From: Syntrophus sp. (in: bacteria)
GTDB taxonomy: Bacteria > Desulfobacterota > Syntrophorhabdia > Syntrophorhabdales > Syntrophorhabdaceae
Assembly (NCBI GenBank): GCA_013824645.1
Contig: PNOF01000006.1
Location: 6,029 to 70,028, forward strand
Direction of reading: 5' to 3'
DNA: 64,000 nt
Position numbers and translations under genes: made by a program. The notes under the pieces were generated by a model, which did no database searches, was not told the origin of the DNA, and saw only the letters and a program-made list of their open reading frames with translations. Below are positions 14,659 through 35,123 of this stretch, one piece after another; position 1 is the first letter of the stretch; every line of letters begins with the position of its first letter.

Positions 14659-15600
14659 TTACATTGCCCGTTGTGTCGCTCCAATATTCCCGTTGGTATT
14701 TTGCAGACCAAGTTCTGCAAGGCTTCCCTGGAAATGCGTCCGGAGTCTCTTTACGATCCTGATTTCTACCTGTCTTACCCGTTCCCGTGAAATCCGGCAG
14801 CTGTCTCCTATCTCCTGAAGTGACATCGGTTCGTCTGCTACAACACGGTTGTTGAATATATATAGGTCTCTGTCGTCCAGTGTGGCCTTGAACTTTTTCA
14901 ACTTTTTTGAAAATATCACCGATTCATACCGTGCGGAAACTATCTCCTCAACATCATCGTCAGAGCTCATTCTATCCATAAGTGTCTCATCACTTCCTTC
15001 ATATATAGGGACATCAAGGGCTATGTCTGTATGGGAAAGCCTTTTCTCCATATCCTCCACTTCCCATTCTTTCAGGCCAAAATTGCTTGCAAGGAGTTTT
15101 GGTGTGGGATCAATCCCCAAGGACTCAAGTCTCCGTTTTTCACTATTTAATCCATAGAAAAGTTTTCTCTGAGCTTGAGTAGTCCCTGTCTTGACAAGAC
15201 TCCAGGAATCCATGAGGAACTTCAGGATATAGGCCTTGATCCATAATGCCGCATAACTGGAGAATTTTGTCCCTTTATAAGGATTATACTTCTTTACCGC
15301 ATGAAGGAGGCCAACATTGCCTTCCTGTATGAGATCGAGGGTGTTGTGGTATGTGTTGTGATATCTCATGGCGATTTTGACTACAATCTTGAGATTTGAC
15401 ACGGTAAGCTTCTGGGCTGCATCCATATCCTGATGATCGAAGACAAGCCGGGATATCTTCTGTTCTTCTTCCCTCGTTAATACCGGATACCTCCGTATCT
15501 CGGCAAGGTATTTTTTAAATGGGTCAAACTGAAGGGATAAATCCTTGCCTTCAGTTGATTCTGGCTCTTTAACGTCGTAATAATTTGTCCTCTCCAACAT
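14659..15600 (-). CDS. rpoH: RNA polymerase sigma-32 (heat-shock sigma factor)
   Basis: 313 aa. Region 2 has NLKIVVKIAMRY...DLIQEGNVGLLHAVKKYNP...FSSYAALWIKAYI, followed by the RpoH-box-like QAQRKLFYGL, and region 4 has SLQEIGDSCRISRERVRQVE. Confidence 0.85.
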   Translation of the reverse strand: MLERTNYYDVKEPESTEGKDLSLQFDPFKKYLAEIRRYPVLTREEEQKISRLVFDHQDMDAAQKLTVSNLKIVVKIAMRYHNTYHNTLDLIQEGNVGLLHAVKKYNPYKGTKFSSYAALWIKAYILKFLMDSWSLVKTGTTQAQRKLFYGLNSEKRRLESLGIDPTPKLLASNFGLKEWEVEDMEKRLSHTDIALDVPIYEGSDETLMDRMSSDDDVEEIVSARYESVIFSKKLKKFKATLDDRDLYIFNNRVVADEPMSLQEIGDSCRISRERVRQVEIRIVKRLRTHFQGSLAELGLQNTNGNIGATQRAM

Positions 15601-16090
15601 ATTGACATCCCTCCCATAATTTTGGTTTTATTAATAGTCGAAGAAAGGACAGTTTCATTTTGTTCATCATTTTACACCTCCGTGTACGGTACAAACAACA
15701 AGCTGTCCTGACTTACCAACATAGGCCCGATGTTATAACTTCCTTATTTATAATACGGTAAACGCTCTCTCGTGTATGTCACAGAACCATCAATTATTTT
15801 GTAGCGCTTTCGCCGGCGCGTCTGTCGTCATTTTTGCTACAGTGATTGGACCGGTAGGAAACAAGAACTGCAAAGATATACAGCCCATTGCTTGGTGCTG
15901 ATATCGTAGATGGTCGGTAATTAAAACTAGGAATGAGGGGCAGTTTTTATAGGGGTTTTATCAGAACATAGTCCTGAACCTATTCGCACGAGTACAAGTG
16001 CCACCTGCTCGACAGCAATTACCATTGGAAGTGTAGCGTGTGAGTCTGTAGCAAAAAAACAACAGCTCAGGAAAACATCAAGTACTGGTA

Positions 16091-16156
16091 TATCAACGCT
16101 CGGCATAAGCGGGAGTGGCCCAGCAGGGACACGATCCGCTTATGCCGTTGTTAGGT
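16091..16156 (-). repeat. attC-like recombination site (minus-strand orientation)
   Basis: Read on the minus strand: ACCTAAC (a perfect RYYYAAC inverse core that contains the ORF stop codon), a 12-bp perfect stem GGCATAAGCGG.../...CCGCTTATGCC around a 23-nt loop, a 3-4 nt asymmetric spacer, then GTTGATA. Confidence 0.55.
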
Positions 16157-16774
16157 CCTCTTTCCAAACGCCTTGCCAATCCTTTTGATAATATAGTTGA
16201 GATTCAGCCCGATGCCGAAGATGTTGGGCTTCAACTCCAAAGCTTCTGTGTCGTCAACCGATAACCCGCTTTTCCGGCCCTCGGATTTGCTCCCAACATA
16301 GGTTTTCAATCGGGGGATAACGTTATGAAGATCAGAGTAATTGACAATCTCGTCCCTAGTATCACCATAGATACGGTCGAGCAGTGGGCGCATTGTTTCG
16401 TCTCGGAGGTCCTTTACGATATGGTCGTTTTTAAACTGCACGCATGTTTGTTCGTGGTAGTCACTTCTTTCGACCATTTGAGAGATAATCTCCACATGGG
16501 CTTCCGTAACGCCTGAAGGGATTTCGCTTAACAGGTGGTGGTAGTCGCCCAAGAAACGCGCGAACAGGTCGCCGGAGAATAGTATGAAGTCCAACACTTC
16601 ATCGGCATGGTCTAACTTTTCTCCATTCGCCACGACCTGCAACCTATAGTCTTCAAGTTTGCGGCACAGTTCCTGTGTAGATTCCTTCCATTCCGACAAA
16701 TGCTGGCAAATATCTTCAAGAGGAACACCTGTGTAATCAGTGCCACATCGATATGCCGATCTCACTCTTGTCAT
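16151..16774 (-). CDS. hypothetical protein carried on a putative gene cassette
   Basis: 207 aa, the only ORF in the 2-kb rpoH-purB gap. Mostly helical and acidic, with a short Gly/hydrophobic C-terminal tail LKPNIFGIGLNLNYIIKRIGKAFGKR. No family recognised. Confidence 0.6.
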   Translation of the reverse strand: MTRVRSAYRCGTDYTGVPLEDICQHLSEWKESTQELCRKLEDYRLQVVANGEKLDHADEVLDFILFSGDLFARFLGDYHHLLSEIPSGVTEAHVEIISQMVERSDYHEQTCVQFKNDHIVKDLRDETMRPLLDRIYGDTRDEIVNYSDLHNVIPRLKTYVGSKSEGRKSGLSVDDTEALELKPNIFGIGLNLNYIIKRIGKAFGKRT

Positions 16775-17336: not shown

Positions 17337-17474
17337 GGCCGCTGGCTTGGAGGGGAAAGAGTCAGATGCGATGGGCTGACGTGGCTCGTTGACCGAGGGC
17401 TATACTTATGTATGCCCGAGGACACGAGGCGCGGCAGCGCGCGCATATGGACTTTCCCCTCCAAGCCAGCGGCC
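17337..17474. repeat. 138-bp element bounded by 23-bp perfect inverted repeats (nature unknown)
   Basis: GGCCGCTGGCTTGGAGGGGAAAG (17337-17359) is the exact reverse complement of 17452-17474. The 92-nt GC-rich interior has further small stems. It is preceded by perfect hairpins at 17258-17274 and 17304-17329. Confidence 0.85.
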
Positions 17475-17572: not shown

Positions 17573-18868
17573 ATGATCGAACGATATACTCTACAGAGAA
17601 TGGCCCGCATCTGGACAGACGAAAACAGGTTCCAGAAATGGCTCGACATTGAAGTTGCCATCTGCGAAGCCTACGGAAAGCTCTCTCTCATTCCCGAAGA
17701 AGACCTGAAGATCATCAAAGCTGAAGCCCGCTTTGATGTGCAGAAGATCCTTGTGATCGAAAAACGTACAAAACACGACGTGGTAGCCTTCATCGAATGC
17801 GTCTCCGAATTCGTCGGACCTTCGGCAAAATACATCCACATGGGTGTCACCTCCTCGGATATTCTCGATACGTCCTTTGCCTGTCAGTTGAATGAAGCCT
17901 CGGACATTTTAATCGAAGACATCAAAGCCCTCATGGGTGTTCTCAAAGAACGCGCCATGCAATACAAAACAACTCCGGCCATCGGCAGGACCCACGGCAT
18001 TCACGCGGAACCGGTCACATTCGGCCTCAAGATAACCCACTTCTATGATGAAATGCGACGGAACCTTGAACGCATGGAAGCTGCCAAAGAGCGTGTTCGT
18101 CACGGCAAAATATCAGGCGCTGTTGGCACCTATGCCCATGTGCCCCCCTCTGTTGAAGAATACGTCTGCGACAAACTGGGACTGAAAGCCGCTCCGATAT
18201 CATCGCAGATTATCCCCCGTGATTACTACGCGGAGTTTTTTACGACCATCGCCATCATCGGTTCATCAATTGAAAAGATGTCCATGGAAATAAGGAACCT
18301 CCAGAGGACCGAGGTGAGTGAGGCGGAAGAGTTTTTCCAGAAAGGTCAGACAGGTTCTTCAGCCATGCCTCACAAGAGAAACCCCATCGCATCGGAAAAC
18401 CTCTGCGGTCTCGCGCGGCTCCTTCACGGATACGCTATGTCCTCGCTGGAAAATGTACCTCTCTGGCATGAGCGCGATATCAGCCACTCATCCGTTGAAA
18501 GGATCATAGCGCCGGACGCGACGATCGTCCTCGACTATATGCTCGAACGGGTAAAGAACCTCTATGGCAACCTCATCGTCTATCCGGAAAAGATGCTGGA
18601 AAATATGAACATGTCCCGTGGGCTTTATCATTCTGAAGCGATACTGCTGGCACTCATCAAAAAGGGTCTCACACGCCTTGAAGCATACAAACTCACACAG
18701 GGTGTCGCCATGCGGTGCTATGAAAATCACCTCGATTTCGTTGCGGAACTGAAGAAAGATGAGGCATTGCGGCAATATTTAAACGAAGCGGAAATTGAAA
18801 GCACCTGCACCAATGAACACTACTTCCAGCACATCGACACAATCTACAAACGCGTCTACGGCAACTGA
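17573..18868 (+). CDS. purB: adenylosuccinate lyase
   Basis: 431 aa. MIERYTL..M..IW..E...Q.WLDIE N-terminus, fumarate-lyase signature GSSAMPHKRNP, and typical PurB length. Confidence 0.95.
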   Translation: MIERYTLQRMARIWTDENRFQKWLDIEVAICEAYGKLSLIPEEDLKIIKAEARFDVQKILVIEKRTKHDVVAFIECVSEFVGPSAKYIHMGVTSSDILDTSFACQLNEASDILIEDIKALMGVLKERAMQYKTTPAIGRTHGIHAEPVTFGLKITHFYDEMRRNLERMEAAKERVRHGKISGAVGTYAHVPPSVEEYVCDKLGLKAAPISSQIIPRDYYAEFFTTIAIIGSSIEKMSMEIRNLQRTEVSEAEEFFQKGQTGSSAMPHKRNPIASENLCGLARLLHGYAMSSLENVPLWHERDISHSSVERIIAPDATIVLDYMLERVKNLYGNLIVYPEKMLENMNMSRGLYHSEAILLALIKKGLTRLEAYKLTQGVAMRCYENHLDFVAELKKDEALRQYLNEAEIESTCTNEHYFQHIDTIYKRVYGN

Positions 18869-30630: not shown

Positions 30631-31084
30631 AATTATTCCTTTGTCTATTTAGTTGTAGCCGTGAATCAGTTTATACGCAATAATAAAATGTAATGGATTG
30701 GTAAAGCTGATAAATTGACAACACGACTTGCTACTATAACATATAGTTACCCAATATTGCAAAGATAACATTAGGTTTTGTCCTTTTCTCTCAAAAAAGT
30801 AATGCATAACAATGGAAAATAAGAAGCACTGGTCATACCTTTGACCTTTCCGGAAAGTGTGGAATTTTATTTTCTGCGTTGCAAGAGGAATTGACGACAT
30901 TTTTGTCGACACGGGACATGTCATTCGACATTTTTACCCGGAAATCATACTGTTTGAAGGGACAATTTACAAATATGATGAACTATTACAATGAGTTACA
31001 TATATCTTGATCAATGGCACGAGTATTGCTTTTCTTATTTCTATGAACAGATTGAATACGAAAAACAATGTCGGGAGGTTGAAG

Positions 31085-31578: not shown

Positions 31579-31752
31579 GATAGTTAATTGAAAGATACTT
31601 CTTCGATAATAAGACCACCATTTTTTCTAATACTGGGTATTTTGTGTCCAGCCAACGGCTTGGAGAAAAGCGTCTCTGCGCGCCCTTTCGTGGAATGATG
31701 CTATGTTTGAAACGGTAATCGTTGCAATAGACAGAATTAGGGAGAAATCCTC

Positions 31753-32070
31753 CTATCCAACAGCGTCCAGGCCTTTTTTCTGCACAAGTGATAGCAATTT
31801 AAGGGAAGGTCCCCGTGGGTGTTTTTCGCCTCTTTCCCATTGGCTTATCAGACTGACAGTCACATTAAGATAACTTGCAAAAACTGCCTGACTAACACCG
31901 GCTTTTTTTCTCAATTGGACTATTTCTTCAGGGGAAAGTTCTTCTACGGGTGTTAGGCATGACGCGTCAAAGTCGCGCATCGTCTTTGCATCTACCAATC
32001 CGATTCTATGGAGCCCTACCGCCGTTTCGTGTACTGCTGCCAGTGCATCAGTTCGATATTTCTTTTTCAT
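31753..32070 (-). CDS. HTH (Xre-type) antitoxin partnered with a RelE/HigB-superfamily toxin
   Basis: 105 aa. LSPEEIVQLRKKAGVSQAVFASYLNVTVSLISQWERGEKHPRGPSLKLL is the typical antitoxin HTH of this TA family. ATGA overlap with the toxin reading frame. Confidence 0.8.
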   Translation of the reverse strand: MKKKYRTDALAAVHETAVGLHRIGLVDAKTMRDFDASCLTPVEELSPEEIVQLRKKAGVSQAVFASYLNVTVSLISQWERGEKHPRGPSLKLLSLVQKKGLDAVG

Positions 32071-32436
32071 GGGTGTACCTCCTCCACTTCCCCGGATTGC
32101 TGTGCTTTGGTCAAATCCTCATTGCTGAAACCTAAATAAATATGTGCCAATCTACGATAGACGTCCAGTTCTATTGGGCTCAGGTTAGACTTTGCATTTT
32201 TAGGAAATCCATATAAAAACACCGATAGAGATCCAACACGATATGCAATAATTGTCCTGTAGCCACCTCGTTTGCCCTGGCCAATACGGGCAACACGCTT
32301 CTTAATGAGCTCTTTCCCTAACGCTCCATCGGCCCAATCCTTGCTCGATTTCACGTATTGCATTCATTAGCATCTCGTCATTAATATGCTCTTTCCGGGC
32401 AAAGCGTGCAAACCAATTGGTTTTGAATATCCGCAC
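32067..32436 (-). pseudogene. RelE/ParE-superfamily toxin gene interrupted by a 1-nt frameshift
   Basis: The N-terminal part VRIFKTNWFARFARKEHINDEMLMNAIREIEQGL (GTG 32436, GGAGG upstream) is in one frame. The remainder ADGALGKELIKKRVARIGQGKRGGYRTIIAY...FLYGFPKN... is in another. The switch lies at the CCC run at 32333-32335. Confidence 0.75.
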
Positions 32437-32776
32437 CTGACCTCCAGAATCAATATTGTTATATTATAGCACTCGGTGCTATAAAACAAAAGTTTTATTG
32501 TTGTCACAAACCTTCCTGAAAGCGAGTTTTGCAGTAAGGTTTTCTTTGTGAAGATTACCAACGGTAATCGTGGACAAAATATCCATAAAAAACCAACCAT
32601 CACTTTTGATGATATTACCGACTAAAAACCATATTCAAGGAAAAGGATGTTTTTATTATCCTATAATTTCAATAAATTTCACTATTGCTTTATTTATAAT
32701 GCAACGATATCATATTGAAAAGTAGAAATTTACCAACTTGGTATATTAAATGTTAGAACCGAAGGAGAAGAGGTAT

Positions 32777-33121
32777 ATGCAAGAAAACTCTGAGCAGATG
32801 CTTAATAAAATAGTTTCGAAATTCGATACAGATGAAGAGCTCGTGGTCAGTTCGGCGTATGGTGATGGCGGCACTACTCTTCTCTTCCCAAGGCTCATAC
32901 GGGCTGCAATGAGCCAGTGGGAGGACGGTGGCGCAACGGTATCACGCTATGCAATATGGGCCAATACGGTCAGAGACCATATTTCTGCTGCTATACATCT
33001 AATAGAAAACTGTGAAACAAATGATGGGTGCCGCTTATTGATAGCTGCTCATAATAGCTTGAGTGCATTTTCTGAGATTCAGAAGCGGCTTGACCCATCA
33101 AACAAAGTAATAGAGGTATAA
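32777..33121 (+). CDS. hypothetical protein (first gene of a two-gene cassette)
   Basis: 114 aa from MQENSEQ... with AAGGAG upstream. The track ORF starts 27 nt earlier, at an ATG that overlaps the GTTAGAA core site. No family recognised. Confidence 0.55.
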   Translation: MQENSEQMLNKIVSKFDTDEELVVSSAYGDGGTTLLFPRLIRAAMSQWEDGGATVSRYAIWANTVRDHISAAIHLIENCETNDGCRLLIAAHNSLSAFSEIQKRLDPSNKVIEV

Positions 33122-33122
33122 C

Positions 33123-33515
33123 TTGGACAGGCTTGTTAATATGGGATTTAAGCATGTCGGTGTCTGGAAGTTGAGCGGTGAGAAAATCCTTTATAATCTA
33201 GAATTATGCTCCAACCTAAAGAACGTATTGTATGCTTTCATATGTGATAAGTCAGTTTTGTACATAGGCAAAACCACACAGCAATTGAAGAAAAGAATGT
33301 ACGGCTATCAAAATCCAGGTCCAACACAATCGACAAACATAAAAGGCAATGGTCTTATTAGAAAGCTAGTCACTTCAGGCAAAGAAGTCGAGATACTTGC
33401 ACTACCAGACAATGGCTTGCTCTATTACGGTGGTTTTCACGTAAACCTTGCAGCGGGGCTTGAAGATAGTATCGTCTCTACAATTAAGCCTCCTTGGAAC
33501 AAGATGGGAATTTAA
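33123..33515 (+). CDS. minimal GIY-YIG nuclease-domain protein
   Basis: 130 aa (TTG start with GAGG upstream; alternative ATG at 33141). VLYAF...VLYIGKT...LKKRMYGY...GLEDSIV...PPWNK reproduces the GIY / YIG / R / E / N pattern. Confidence 0.75.
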   Translation: MDRLVNMGFKHVGVWKLSGEKILYNLELCSNLKNVLYAFICDKSVLYIGKTTQQLKKRMYGYQNPGPTQSTNIKGNGLIRKLVTSGKEVEILALPDNGLLYYGGFHVNLAAGLEDSIVSTIKPPWNKMGI

Positions 33516-33579
33516 GTTCTAATGCTCGGCTTGCAGCGAATCCGCGCGATGCGCGTCTCGCTGAAGCCGAGCATTATAC
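33516..33579 (+). repeat. attC-like site A
   Basis: Starts 1 nt after the GIY-YIG stop codon. 33520-33532 pairs with 33564-33576 and 33534-33539 with 33558-33563, giving a 19-bp stem with a single bulged G at 33533. Outer boxes are GTTCTAAT ... ATTATAC. Confidence 0.6.
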
Positions 33580-33590
33580 CAGGAGGACAA

Positions 33591-34187
33591 ATGAAGACGG
33601 TAGCGGTATTCGTTGTACTGGCACTTCTAAGTGTGTGTCCCACTTTTGCTGCAAGTAAAGGTGAAATAGCTCCGAAAAGCACTTACAAACAAATAGGAGC
33701 CACATTGCTTTCACCAAGTGAAGCGGGTTGGTATTTAGCACAATCAACTGCCTATGGGATAGCCTTTGGCAGGCAGTACGGCAGCAAAAATGAAACCGCT
33801 ATTGCCAATACAGTCATTTTCAAAGTCGATGGTTTTGAAGAAGACAAAGCGTTTCTTGATTACATTGTGAGCGAACGAGAAAAACAAGATGACAAAACAA
33901 GATTCAAGATATTGGACACAAAGAACGAACATGTGAGCTTCAAGGGCTCATCCTGTCTGAAGTATCGGGCGCTTTCAGAAGACCATAAGAGCCAAGGAAT
34001 CAATTCAGCGGATTTTCAGTACTTGAAGACGTTTGGTTACATTTGCCGCCATCCTTCAAACCGAGTCATTGCGTTTCAGATGGAAATCTCACACAGAGGC
34101 AAAGATAAAGCGTTTCCAGAAGCGTTGCTTTCGGCGGGCGAGGAGTTCTTCAATAATATTCAGTTCAATGATCAGGGACTGAAATAG
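33591..34187 (+). CDS. secreted hypothetical protein
   Basis: 198 aa from MKTVAVFVVLALLSVCPTFAAS (signal peptide) with AGGAGG upstream. No family recognised. Confidence 0.6.
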   Translation: MKTVAVFVVLALLSVCPTFAASKGEIAPKSTYKQIGATLLSPSEAGWYLAQSTAYGIAFGRQYGSKNETAIANTVIFKVDGFEEDKAFLDYIVSEREKQDDKTRFKILDTKNEHVSFKGSSCLKYRALSEDHKSQGINSADFQYLKTFGYICRHPSNRVIAFQMEISHRGKDKAFPEALLSAGEEFFNNIQFNDQGLK

Positions 34188-34192
34188 TATAA

Positions 34193-34254
34193 GGTATAAC
34201 CAATGCGTGCAGCAAATCGGCGTGAAACGCCTCTTGCTGACGCCAGCGTTATGC
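34193..34254 (+). repeat. attC-like site B
   Basis: GGTATAAC / GTTATGC outer helix, 4x4 unpaired spacer, then a 10-bp helix GCGT[G]CAGCAA / TTGCTGACGC with bulged G 34209, and an apical GGCG-TGAAA-CGCC hairpin. This is the canonical R-box / spacer / L-box / variable-loop layout. Confidence 0.65.
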
Positions 34255-34294
34255 GATGAACATAAGAGCTGTATGTAGCCATACTTGGTGCCAT

Positions 34295-34332
34295 ACATTA
34301 GTATTGCTACTAATGTATAAGTTTGGTATAGT
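34295..34332 (+). promoter_or_regulatory. putative brnTA promoter with overlapping 9-bp palindromic operator
   Basis: TTGCTA (34304-34309), 17-nt spacer, TATAGT (34327-34332). The perfect palindrome ACATTAGTA-TTGC-TACTAATGT (34295-34316) covers the -35. The first ATG (34339) lies 6 nt after the -10. Confidence 0.5.
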
Positions 34333-34338
34333 GTGTTA

Positions 34339-34626
34339 ATGAGAAAAGCAACCTTCGAATGGGATGAGGAAAAGGACAAGGAAAACCAGACCAAACATGG
34401 TATTTCTTTTCTGACTGCACAACGGGCTTTTCTTGATCCCCACCGTATTATCGCTGAAGACATTACCCATAGTAGCGAAGAAGGCCGGTATTACTGCATG
34501 GGACGTGTAGGTGAAGGTATTTTGACTGTCAGGTTTACATACCGTGGTAACATTATTCGAATTTATGGCGCAGGTTACTGGAGAAAAGGAAGGAAAATTT
34601 ATGAAGACCAAAACAAAATACACTGA
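34339..34626 (+). CDS. brnT: BrnT-family (DUF497) toxin
   Basis: FEWDEEKD.EN..KHGISF..A..AF.DP........HS..E.RY..(I)G......L.V.FT.RG..IRI..A is the BrnT pattern. Start taken at the ATG rather than the track GTG at 34333. Confidence 0.85.
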   Translation: MRKATFEWDEEKDKENQTKHGISFLTAQRAFLDPHRIIAEDITHSSEEGRYYCMGRVGEGILTVRFTYRGNIIRIYGAGYWRKGRKIYEDQNKIH

Positions 34627-34840
34627 AGAACCCATGGGCGATCTGAAGGTCGTCAAAGACTTTCTCCCCCCACCAGATCAGTTGGTGCTGAGGGAAGACA
34701 ATATTAAGGTAACCATATCCTTGAAGAAATCGAGTATCACCTTTTTCAAAGAACAAGCAAAGAAGCAGAAGACTTCTTACCAGAAGATGATAAGAGAGGT
34801 AGTGGACTGGTATGCTTCGCATTATCAAAAGAACGCATAA
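34601..34840 (+). CDS. brnA: BrnA-family antitoxin
   Basis: 79 aa from MKTKTKY. DFLPPPDQLVLRE..IKVTISL.KSSI.FFK..AKK...SYQKMIREVV..Y matches BrnA. Overlaps the brnT end by 26 nt. Confidence 0.75.
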   Translation: MKTKTKYTEEPMGDLKVVKDFLPPPDQLVLREDNIKVTISLKKSSITFFKEQAKKQKTSYQKMIREVVDWYASHYQKNA

Positions 34841-34888
34841 CCCGACGGTGCAGCCAATAGCCCGCTACGCGGGCTCTTTTTGTTATTT
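34834..34888 (+). repeat. degenerate attC-like site C (last in array)
   Basis: CGCATAAC overlaps the brnA stop codon. It shares TAAC-(7 nt)-TGCAGC.AAT with A and B and ends GTTATTT, but the right-hand L arm is missing. Only a 7-bp hairpin AGCCCGC-TAC-GCGGGCT followed by a T-run remains. Confidence 0.4.
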
Positions 34889-35123
34889 GCTTTTACCAAT
34901 CCATTGCTTGATAGAGGAGACCTGTTGCCGAAAGGAATATCGGAGGATTTATCATACCCATCTTAGCGAAGGTGATCGTGTCCGAAGGACCGGTGCGCAG
35001 GCTTGAACATCAGCGCATATGCTCCCTTGCGCATCGAGGGAGTTAAGCTATTAGATGGGTCAGAAATCCGTAGTAATGAGTGGAGGGAATGGGTCTCCTC
35101 TATCAAAACAACCATGATTCAAT

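Follow-up and report, generated by a model that had tools for sequence, protein, structure and literature searches.

In integrons, the bottom strand of a cassette-borne recombination site, attC, folds, and the tyrosine recombinase IntI cuts 5'-AAC-3' between A and C, which reads as G|TT on the coding strand (the bar marks the crossover). The DNA considered here, called the window throughout, is a stretch of 64,000 nucleotides from the metagenome-assembled genome of an uncultured Syntrophus sp. (GenBank assembly GCA_013824645.1, contig PNOF01000006.1, positions 6,029 to 70,028 of the forward strand). It very probably holds, at 32753-34882, a three-cassette integron array with no integrase gene, intI, in about 29 kb on either side, together with a single integrase-less cassette at 16.1 kb. 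Arrays of the first kind, with two or more attC sites and no nearby intI (4 kb in IntegronFinder), are called CALINs, for clusters of attC sites that lack an integron integrase; 95% of them have no recognisable intI pseudogene, and the origins proposed for them include intI loss, rearrangement and secondary-site insertion (PMC4889954). Single cassettes are termed SALINs (for a single attC site that lacks an integron integrase), and integrases can also insert cassettes at genomic attG sites, which have a GWT consensus (bioRxiv 10.1101/2022.09.11.507474).

In the canonical attC site, the bottom-strand R' box has the form RYYYAAC and the extrahelical base of L'' is in most cases a G; the furthest extrahelical base is a conserved T, a 6-bp stem separates the two, the spacer measures 5-6 nt and the whole site 57-141 bp (PMC5027507). 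Natural exceptions exist, as attC_dfrA1 carries a C at the L'' bulge, and sites of the T-N6-C type are efficient substrates (PMC3053210). The first base of the GTT triplet can be any nucleotide if it is common to both partners, but a change in one partner costs 10^3-10^4-fold (PMC2811028).

The array of the window consists of three units on the + strand, each bounded by the G|TT-type crossover of an attC-like site. Cassette 1 (32753-33573, 821 bp) contains an orphan open reading frame (ORF) at 32777-33121 and a weak GIY-YIG-like ORF at 33141-33515 (Pfam), cassette 2 (33574-34248, 675 bp) encodes a secreted orphan protein (33591-34187), and cassette 3 (34249-34882, 634 bp) encodes a BrnT toxin (34339-34626) and a BrnA-like antitoxin (34601-34840; Pfam), with a promoter-like site of its own at 34304-34332 in a promoter scan. 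The attC-like sites, designated A, B and C, all lie directly 3' of stop codons, with 677 bp from A to B and another 641 bp from B to a degenerate C. An earlier note, made by reading the sequence alone, had proposed this arrangement; the sequence strings it quoted are all in place, and the sizes it gave for these three units are correct.

Site B (34194-34254, + strand; R'' GTATAAC, R' G|TTATGC) has the canonical architecture that the earlier note ascribed to it, namely a 10-bp inner helix with one bulged G, an apical hairpin (fold z = -3.3) and an unpaired 4x4 spacer. Site A (33517-33579, + strand) folds as a single strand at -26.9 kcal/mol (z = -6.8) into the 19-bp stem anticipated for it, from which one G of the coding strand bulges out; its spacer is paired throughout, and its core departs from the canonical form in a compensated way (R'' ...TAAT, R' A|TT). 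A covariance model, R1, built from metagenome sites as described below and run over the 64-kb window with filters off, scores B at 67.6 bits (E 5e-21) and A at 40.5 bits (E 3e-11), as compared to minus-strand scores of 17.3 bits (E 0.007) for B and 15.1 bits (E 0.04) for A. The proposal that all three sites are attC therefore stands for A and B by both model and fold, but not for C as an intact site. Site C (34835-34888, + strand; R' G at 34882) reaches 12.2 bits (E 0.48; match 34835-34898), has as its only fold a 7-bp GC hairpin (z = -0.9) with a T-run behind it, and is flagged by a terminator scan (34859-34875 plus TTTTT). It keeps R'', L'', the apical hairpin and a GTT, and about 9 nt of its L' arm are deleted in comparison with the intact terminal sites of two other loci (L231 and L241; loci compared with the window are numbered with an L), which end ...GCTCCGGCTGATTTTTTCG|TT where site C ends ...GGGCTCTTTTTG|TTATTTG. 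Site C is an attC decayed by loss of the L' arm that now resembles an intrinsic terminator; neither sequence inspection nor the terminator scan found an intrinsic-terminator T-run at A or B. The motif TAAY-N(7-8)-TGCAGCNAAT, the shared layout to which the earlier note had drawn attention, has just three copies in the whole 64 kb, those of sites A, B and C.

The wider family to which these sites point was collected with the metagenome scan pattern TAACN7TGCAGCSAATN{10,28}TCTSGCTGA, which at least 120 metagenome contigs match, with chance expectation estimated at a handful. The GTT, which lies outside the search pattern and is the pairing partner of the AAC fixed by it, sits 7-8 nt past the pattern end in 114 of 128 sites (about 12% by chance), and family sites are 60-68 nt long with an apical hairpin that varies in both sequence and length. 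Alignment A1, comprising 101 distinct metagenome sites and no window sequence, is the basis of R1. Placed on an explicit attC-type structure, 94.6% of its cells are paired and 8 pairs show double changes, and its covariation score is 0.308, as against 0.093 in shuffles (none of 500 reach the observed value) and at most 0.05 with slid 3' partners. Compensation is evident at pairs that the pattern left free, including 13-57 (GC 53, CG 31), 14-56 (AU 42, GC 30, CG 18, UA 4) and 21-50 (CG 67, GC 32; 2 unpaired). Read on the bottom strand, the family has the form T-[TGGCTG]-C, with extrahelical bases 6 bp apart and opposite the cleaved AAC. In 100 loci R1 identifies 185 sites, many of them in same-strand arrays of 6-9 sites (L121, L156, L151, L141 and L164); the units have a median length of 719 bp. 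An Rfam scan of 30.5-36 kb returned nothing relevant, Rfam being without an attC family.

The observation that had carried most of the argument in the earlier note, that the first nucleotides of each unit are complementary to the left box of the next site, is exact in all three instances. TTAGAAC (32753-32759) pairs with GTTCTAA (33516-33522), TTATACC (33574-33580) with GGTATAA (34193-34199), and TTATGCG (34249-34255) with CGCATAA (34834-34840), and each match ends at 7 nt, the eighth base being mismatched in all three. To score the same relationship in the family, the 5 variable positions that follow G|TT in site n were set against the complement of a second site's outer box. Among 69 adjacent pairs (n and n+1), 29 match at all five positions and 48 (70%) at four or more; for a site and its own outer box (164 comparisons) the corresponding counts are 1 and 8 (5%), and for 5000 random site pairs they are 68 (1.4%) and 396 (8%). 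In no single family site do the outer 4 nt of one box fully complement those of the other. Taking the 1.4% of the random pairings within the family, the chance that all three window matches extend over the 5 variable positions is about 3e-6, which speaks against chance as their source. The cross-boundary rule is thus a general property of the site family and the signature expected of cassettes linearised at G|TT, and it is explained if the distal 6-7 nt of each cassette's own R' box come to lie at the 5' end of that cassette. Because the complementarity is strand-symmetric, the orientation of the array cannot be read from it, and follows instead from bulge position, the strand preference of the model and the homology breakpoints. 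The reverse orientation was considered and is ruled out by the same strand preference, by breakpoints that fall in R' and not R'', and by the divergent intI genes of L139 and L231.

Each of the three units is found in other contigs at 82-89% DNA identity, and the homology of all three breaks exactly at the G|TT junctions where the earlier note predicted that cassettes had entered. Unit 1 recurs in L098, where positions 1369-2158 and window 32751-33542 agree at 88.7% identity; directly 5' of it is a family attC with the end ...TTGTG|TTAGAAC, and its own terminal site, AATTCTAAC...G|TTAGG, has a canonical TAAC...G|TT where site A has TAAT and A|TT, indicating that the core of site A is a derived, compensated change. 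Unit 2 recurs in L081, where positions 2316-2996 are 83.7% identical to window 33574-34251, the secreted orphan protein is 86% identical, and the flanking genes differ on both sides. The homology starts exactly at TTATACC, which is preceded by G in L081 and by A in the window, and stops at the G|TT of site B, the inner helix of which differs between the two by a compensated change from A-T to G-C (GCAGCAA/TTGCTG in the window, GCAGCGA/TCGCTG in L081). The L081 locus is an array of four small same-strand ORFs, each with a family site after it, and obeys the 7-nt rule (TTAGAAG with CTTCTAA, TTATGTG with CACATAA). Unit 3 recurs in L241 (2739-3330, 83.8% identical to window 34247-34841) and in L231 (2438-3031, 82% identical), where it is the first cassette and stands beside intI. 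The BrnTA unit starts at G|TTATGC in all three of its contexts; what precedes it is site B (window), another attC (L241) or an attI (L231). The distant homologues of the secreted orphan protein on L082, L083 and L085 are uninformative, having ordinary-looking neighbourhoods with weak or different palindromes only. A BrnTA pair of 82% nucleotide identity is also present in L221-L230 without attC or cassette boundaries, with homology confined to coding sequence (window 34345-34838), and the BrnTA module apparently persists outside integron cassettes too.

The link between the site family and IntI is one of association, in that family sites lie in arrays adjoining integrases that match TIGR02249 ('integron integrase', cut-off 265 bits) in L139 and L231. 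The L231 integrase is 362 aa long and scores 407.6 bits, and BrnT homologues that are 86% identical, on L231-L239, belong to the first cassette beside the integrase, which is followed by VapBC, ParDE and PemK cassettes. The L139 integrase scores 368 bits and is divergent from a cassette array that can be chained by the complement rule; the chain begins at attI (...TTAATTACATTG|TTATGCA), takes in five cassettes and ends at a family site. Sites with a C bulge and sites with a G bulge on the coding strand both occur in this one array, and the identity of the bulged base is thus natural variation within a single integron. Three further loci (L117, L104 and L111) have disrupted or partial intI genes. 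The integrase remnants of L117 (2598-4399) and L104 (3784-7466) are co-directional with their cassettes, the attI of L117 lying about 180 nt past the 3' end of intI, in a layout that resembles an 'inverted integrase' integron, unlike the divergent arrangement of L139 and L231. In the window itself, tblastn with two IntI proteins found no IntI-like sequence at E<=1, in agreement with the earlier note, and a sensitive tblastn for integrase remnants beside both leaders (described next) and to the right of site C gave noise only. With no intI within about 29 kb of the array on either side, the window contains no complete integron, in which intI adjoins attI and the array.

Upstream of the first crossover (G 32752, TT 32753) the array has an AT-rich, attI-like leader on the + strand (32505-32752) that forms no hairpin by folding, has no R1 match, and includes two conserved blocks, CCATAAAAAACCA (32583-32595) and TTGGTATATTAAATG (32738-32752). 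A second leader of this type precedes the lone cassette. That cassette, the SALIN, occupies 16791-16097 on the - strand and consists of a 207-aa orphan ORF (16151-16774) and one attC (16157-16091) that R1 scores at 28.1 bits (E 9e-7; match 16091-16156, - strand). It starts with G|TTAGGTC, of which its R'' box, GACCTAA(C), is the exact 7-nt complement. Its leader (16966-16792, - strand) ends TTGGCATATTAAATG|TT, and the two first junctions, TTGGCATATTAAATG|TTAG and TTGGTATATTAAATG|TTAG, are identical at 18 of 19 nt, while the CCATAAAAAACCA block sits 155-160 nt upstream of the junction at both loci. The genuine attI of L231, which ends ...CGTATATTAATTG|TTA, is 12/13 identical to the core of the main leader, and an AT-rich attI core of the form ...TATATTAA(T/A)TG|TTA is common to the window and the integrons of L231 and L139. 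The junctions next to other integrases are likewise AT-rich, and direct repeats often lie upstream of them. The leaders and the sequences at the left and right edges have no match in about 240 loci, except for the flank of the toxin-antitoxin (TA) module in L208, a locus with the same order of TA module, leader and array as the window. Taken as sequences, both leaders appear attI-like, and neither has an adjoining intI.

Two unrelated contigs, L081 (2225-2315) and L176 (about 1750-1819), have in common an attI-type leader with direct repeats of GGGATATAC(AGC) that ends ...TAATT(AC)TTG|TTAT, and in L081 a DEAD-box helicase gene, not an integrase gene, lies upstream of it. The lone cassette of the window is situated between a sigma-70-family gene (14659-15600) downstream and purB (17573-18868) upstream. 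The 780-nt non-coding stretch between its leader and purB contains an imperfect palindrome of about 138 nt (17337-17474) that is 77% self-complementary, with mirror-image spurious ORFs on both strands.

The divergent position next to the main leader, where intI sits in L231 and L139, is occupied by a type II TA module on the - strand (31750-32504), comprising an intact HTH_3 antitoxin gene (31753-32070), a RelE-family toxin gene split by frameshift into two ORFs (32067-32363 and 32302-32436, overlapping at 32302-32363), both assigned by Pfam, and a promoter of about 70 nt. Homologues of the RelE toxin on other contigs are intact genes of 122 aa, and homologues of the antitoxin at 93-96% identity turn up in many contexts. 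The earlier note had flagged this inverted pair as a weak candidate for a fourth unit (31721-32752), an idea that does not survive comparison. In 13 other contexts (L208-L220), among them an element bearing a type IV secretion system (L209) and the neighbourhood of an IS110 transposase (L210), the homology spans only 31749/54-32502/21; in L208 it crosses the proposed 31721 junction and extends down to 31682; and the proposed fourth site (32699-32758) has no fold (z = 0.1) and no R1 match even at E<=10. The homology limits and the non-folding end site thus rule out this fourth unit; the TA pair moves as a module in its own right, without the cassette boundaries that had been suggested.

Viewed together, the match of an independent model to A and B, the covariation, the breakpoints, the presence of the family in TIGR02249 integrons and the lack of a window integrase bear out the earlier reading of the locus as an integrase-less cassette array, or CALIN, with crossovers at (G/A)|TT. 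Mechanistically, the bottom strand of each attC in the window would fold into a hairpin to be cut by IntI at the coding-strand G|TT, and circular cassettes would be excised, or inserted at attI, with the linearised cassette keeping at its 5' end the distal 6-7 nt of its own R'. The AT-rich, non-hairpin, attI-like leader at the start of the array makes an origin from an integron platform, with intI since lost or separated, most likely, and the frameshifted RelE/HTH (helix-turn-helix) TA module would now fill the divergent place where intI normally sits. The locus appears to be decaying, as site C is without its L' arm, site A has an A|TT core and RelE is frameshifted. By the first-base rule (PMC2811028), site A, with its A|TT core, is expected to be a poor recombination partner for its G|TT neighbours, and this compensated core should isolate it from partner sites. 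Of the three, site B alone looks fully competent, and what mobility is left would presumably need an integrase in trans. The locus would thus represent a snapshot of an integron platform decaying into fixed chromosomal genes, with intI gone, one attC truncated to a terminator and one core mutated.

Several features do not sit easily with the interpretation of the locus as an integron-derived array. The bulged base is a G on the coding strand, and thus a C on the bottom strand in place of the usual bottom-strand G; the spacer is 4x4 and not 5-6 nt per arm, and is fully paired in A; the crossover of site A is A|TT; and site C is not a functional-looking attC. In addition, the only close genome compared, L001, differs from the window across the whole slot, such that no single-cassette indels are visible.

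The same cassettes might instead have been inserted in trans by an integrase encoded elsewhere, at attG-type (GWT) secondary sites, with no platform ever having existed at either locus. Cassette insertion outside att sites is efficient and has been proposed as a source of SALINs and small CALINs (bioRxiv 10.1101/2022.09.11.507474), 95% of CALINs are without a nearby intI pseudogene (PMC4889954), no IntI remnant lies beside either leader, and the junctions are AT-rich. Yet the 18 of 19 nt common to both first junctions, together with a second block at the same spacing, go far beyond a GWT preference, the core closely matches the genuine attI that stands beside intI in L231, and L208 has the same TA-leader-array architecture, leaving insertion in trans rather unlikely. 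Somewhat more doubtful is the suggestion that the two attI-like leaders are live platforms served in trans, which would make this a 'distributed' integron with several attI sites and no cis intI. The TA module in the intI position, in the window and in L208, could stabilise the platform.

TA pairs, including those of the BrnT/BrnA and HigBA types, are typical cargo of the pdif modules of Acinetobacter, and with this cargo and no integrase in the window it is conceivable that not IntI but XerC/D, working at dif-like sites, or an HUH transposase that depends on hairpins, moved the units. This is very improbable, because the sites are imperfect hairpins of about 61-66 nt in which RYYYAAC/GTTRRRY boxes are combined with spacer, bulge and variable loop, and not 28-bp XerC-spacer-XerD sites; because array sites all face one way, and pdif sites alternate; and because arrays start beside TIGR02249 integrases, with no HUH or Xer gene linked in the examined loci. 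Finally, the idea that the palindromes are mere terminators or repetitive extragenic palindromic (REP)-like repeats after genes, with 7-nt complementarities arising by chance, draws on the position of all sites directly after stop codons, the terminator-like site C with its T-run and the stable hairpins of A and B, but is effectively refuted by the missing T-run at A and B, a motif confined to A, B and C in 64 kb, compensatory covariation in 101 sites, three 5/5 matches at about 3e-6, breakpoints exactly at G|TT for three units and the linkage of the family to TIGR02249 integrases.

The cassette array lies in a slot that is variable in the closest genome compared, an uncultured deltaproteobacterium (L001) with an 86% identical aldehyde dehydrogenase. 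Looking up the exact protein sequences of the aldehyde dehydrogenase and the DEAD-box helicase that flank the array gave no match. L001 is collinear with the window flanks at 85-88% DNA identity on both sides, and in place of window 31579-35122 it has some 3.4 kb of unrelated DNA containing an AraC-type fragment and a repeat-rich surface protein, from which the variability of the slot is deduced; L001 has no site of the attC family. The interval from site C to the stop codon of the aldehyde dehydrogenase gene holds a structured element some 210 nt long (34895-35123), which an 86% complementary inverted repeat of 22 nt (34908-34929 and 35085-35106) closes off and which has a minus-strand RNA fold of -79 kcal/mol (z = -4.5); it has no Rfam match and no second copy in the window or the fetched loci, and is absent from L001. 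A second indel lies near the variable slot, as L001 has about 970 bp of extra DNA (15711-16661, near window 30828-30885) between the genes for a DEAD-box helicase and a small glycine-rich membrane protein, with a 316-aa ORF whose sequence looks alpha/beta-hydrolase-like.

How the locus compares with known systems can be seen first in its sites. As in classical attC sites and Vibrio cholerae repeats (VCRs; PMC5027507, PMC3053210), the family has RYYYAAC/GTTRRRY boxes, a spacer that is unpaired except in site A, a variable terminal structure, and L-box extrahelical bases that lie opposite the cleaved AAC around a 6-bp stem, in sites of 61-68 nt that fall within the range of 57-141. It departs from them in a bottom-strand L'' bulge that is C and not the usual G, as in attC_dfrA1 and engineered T-N6-C sites, in a spacer of 4 nt per arm and not 5-6, and in an unusually conserved L-box (TGCAGCSAAT...TCTSGCTGA). 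This widespread, sequence-conserved family, which occurs in at least 120 metagenome contigs as well as in the Syntrophus window, has orphan genes and TA pairs as its cargo, and its cassette boundaries and attC logic could be read correctly from raw sequence.

The promoter-bearing BrnTA cassette of the window, and likewise the run of BrnTA, VapBC, ParDE and PemK in L231, resemble the TA cassettes of sedentary chromosomal integrons (bioRxiv 10.1101/2022.08.03.502626), from which the inverted RelE/HTH pair of the window differs in not being a cassette. With the complete integrons of L231 and L139 the window has in common the attC family and the cross-boundary rule, and also the BrnTA unit that is the first cassette in L231; intI is present in those loci and not in the window, where the TA module takes its position. 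Like described CALINs (PMC4889954), the window has at least two same-strand attC sites less than 4 kb apart with no intI nearby, here in an array of three cassettes, contains mostly orphan ORFs and TA pairs, and has no recognisable intI pseudogene, but it differs in its attI-like leader, one truncated terminal site and one compensated A|TT core. The lone cassette is likewise comparable to SALINs in having one ORF, one attC and no integrase, although its upstream junction is attI-like and nearly identical to that of the main array, unlike a generic attG (GWT) site. The type of element is therefore already known and the current understanding of integrons is unchanged, the only mildly unusual aspect being the conserved pair of attI-like leaders without a cis integrase.

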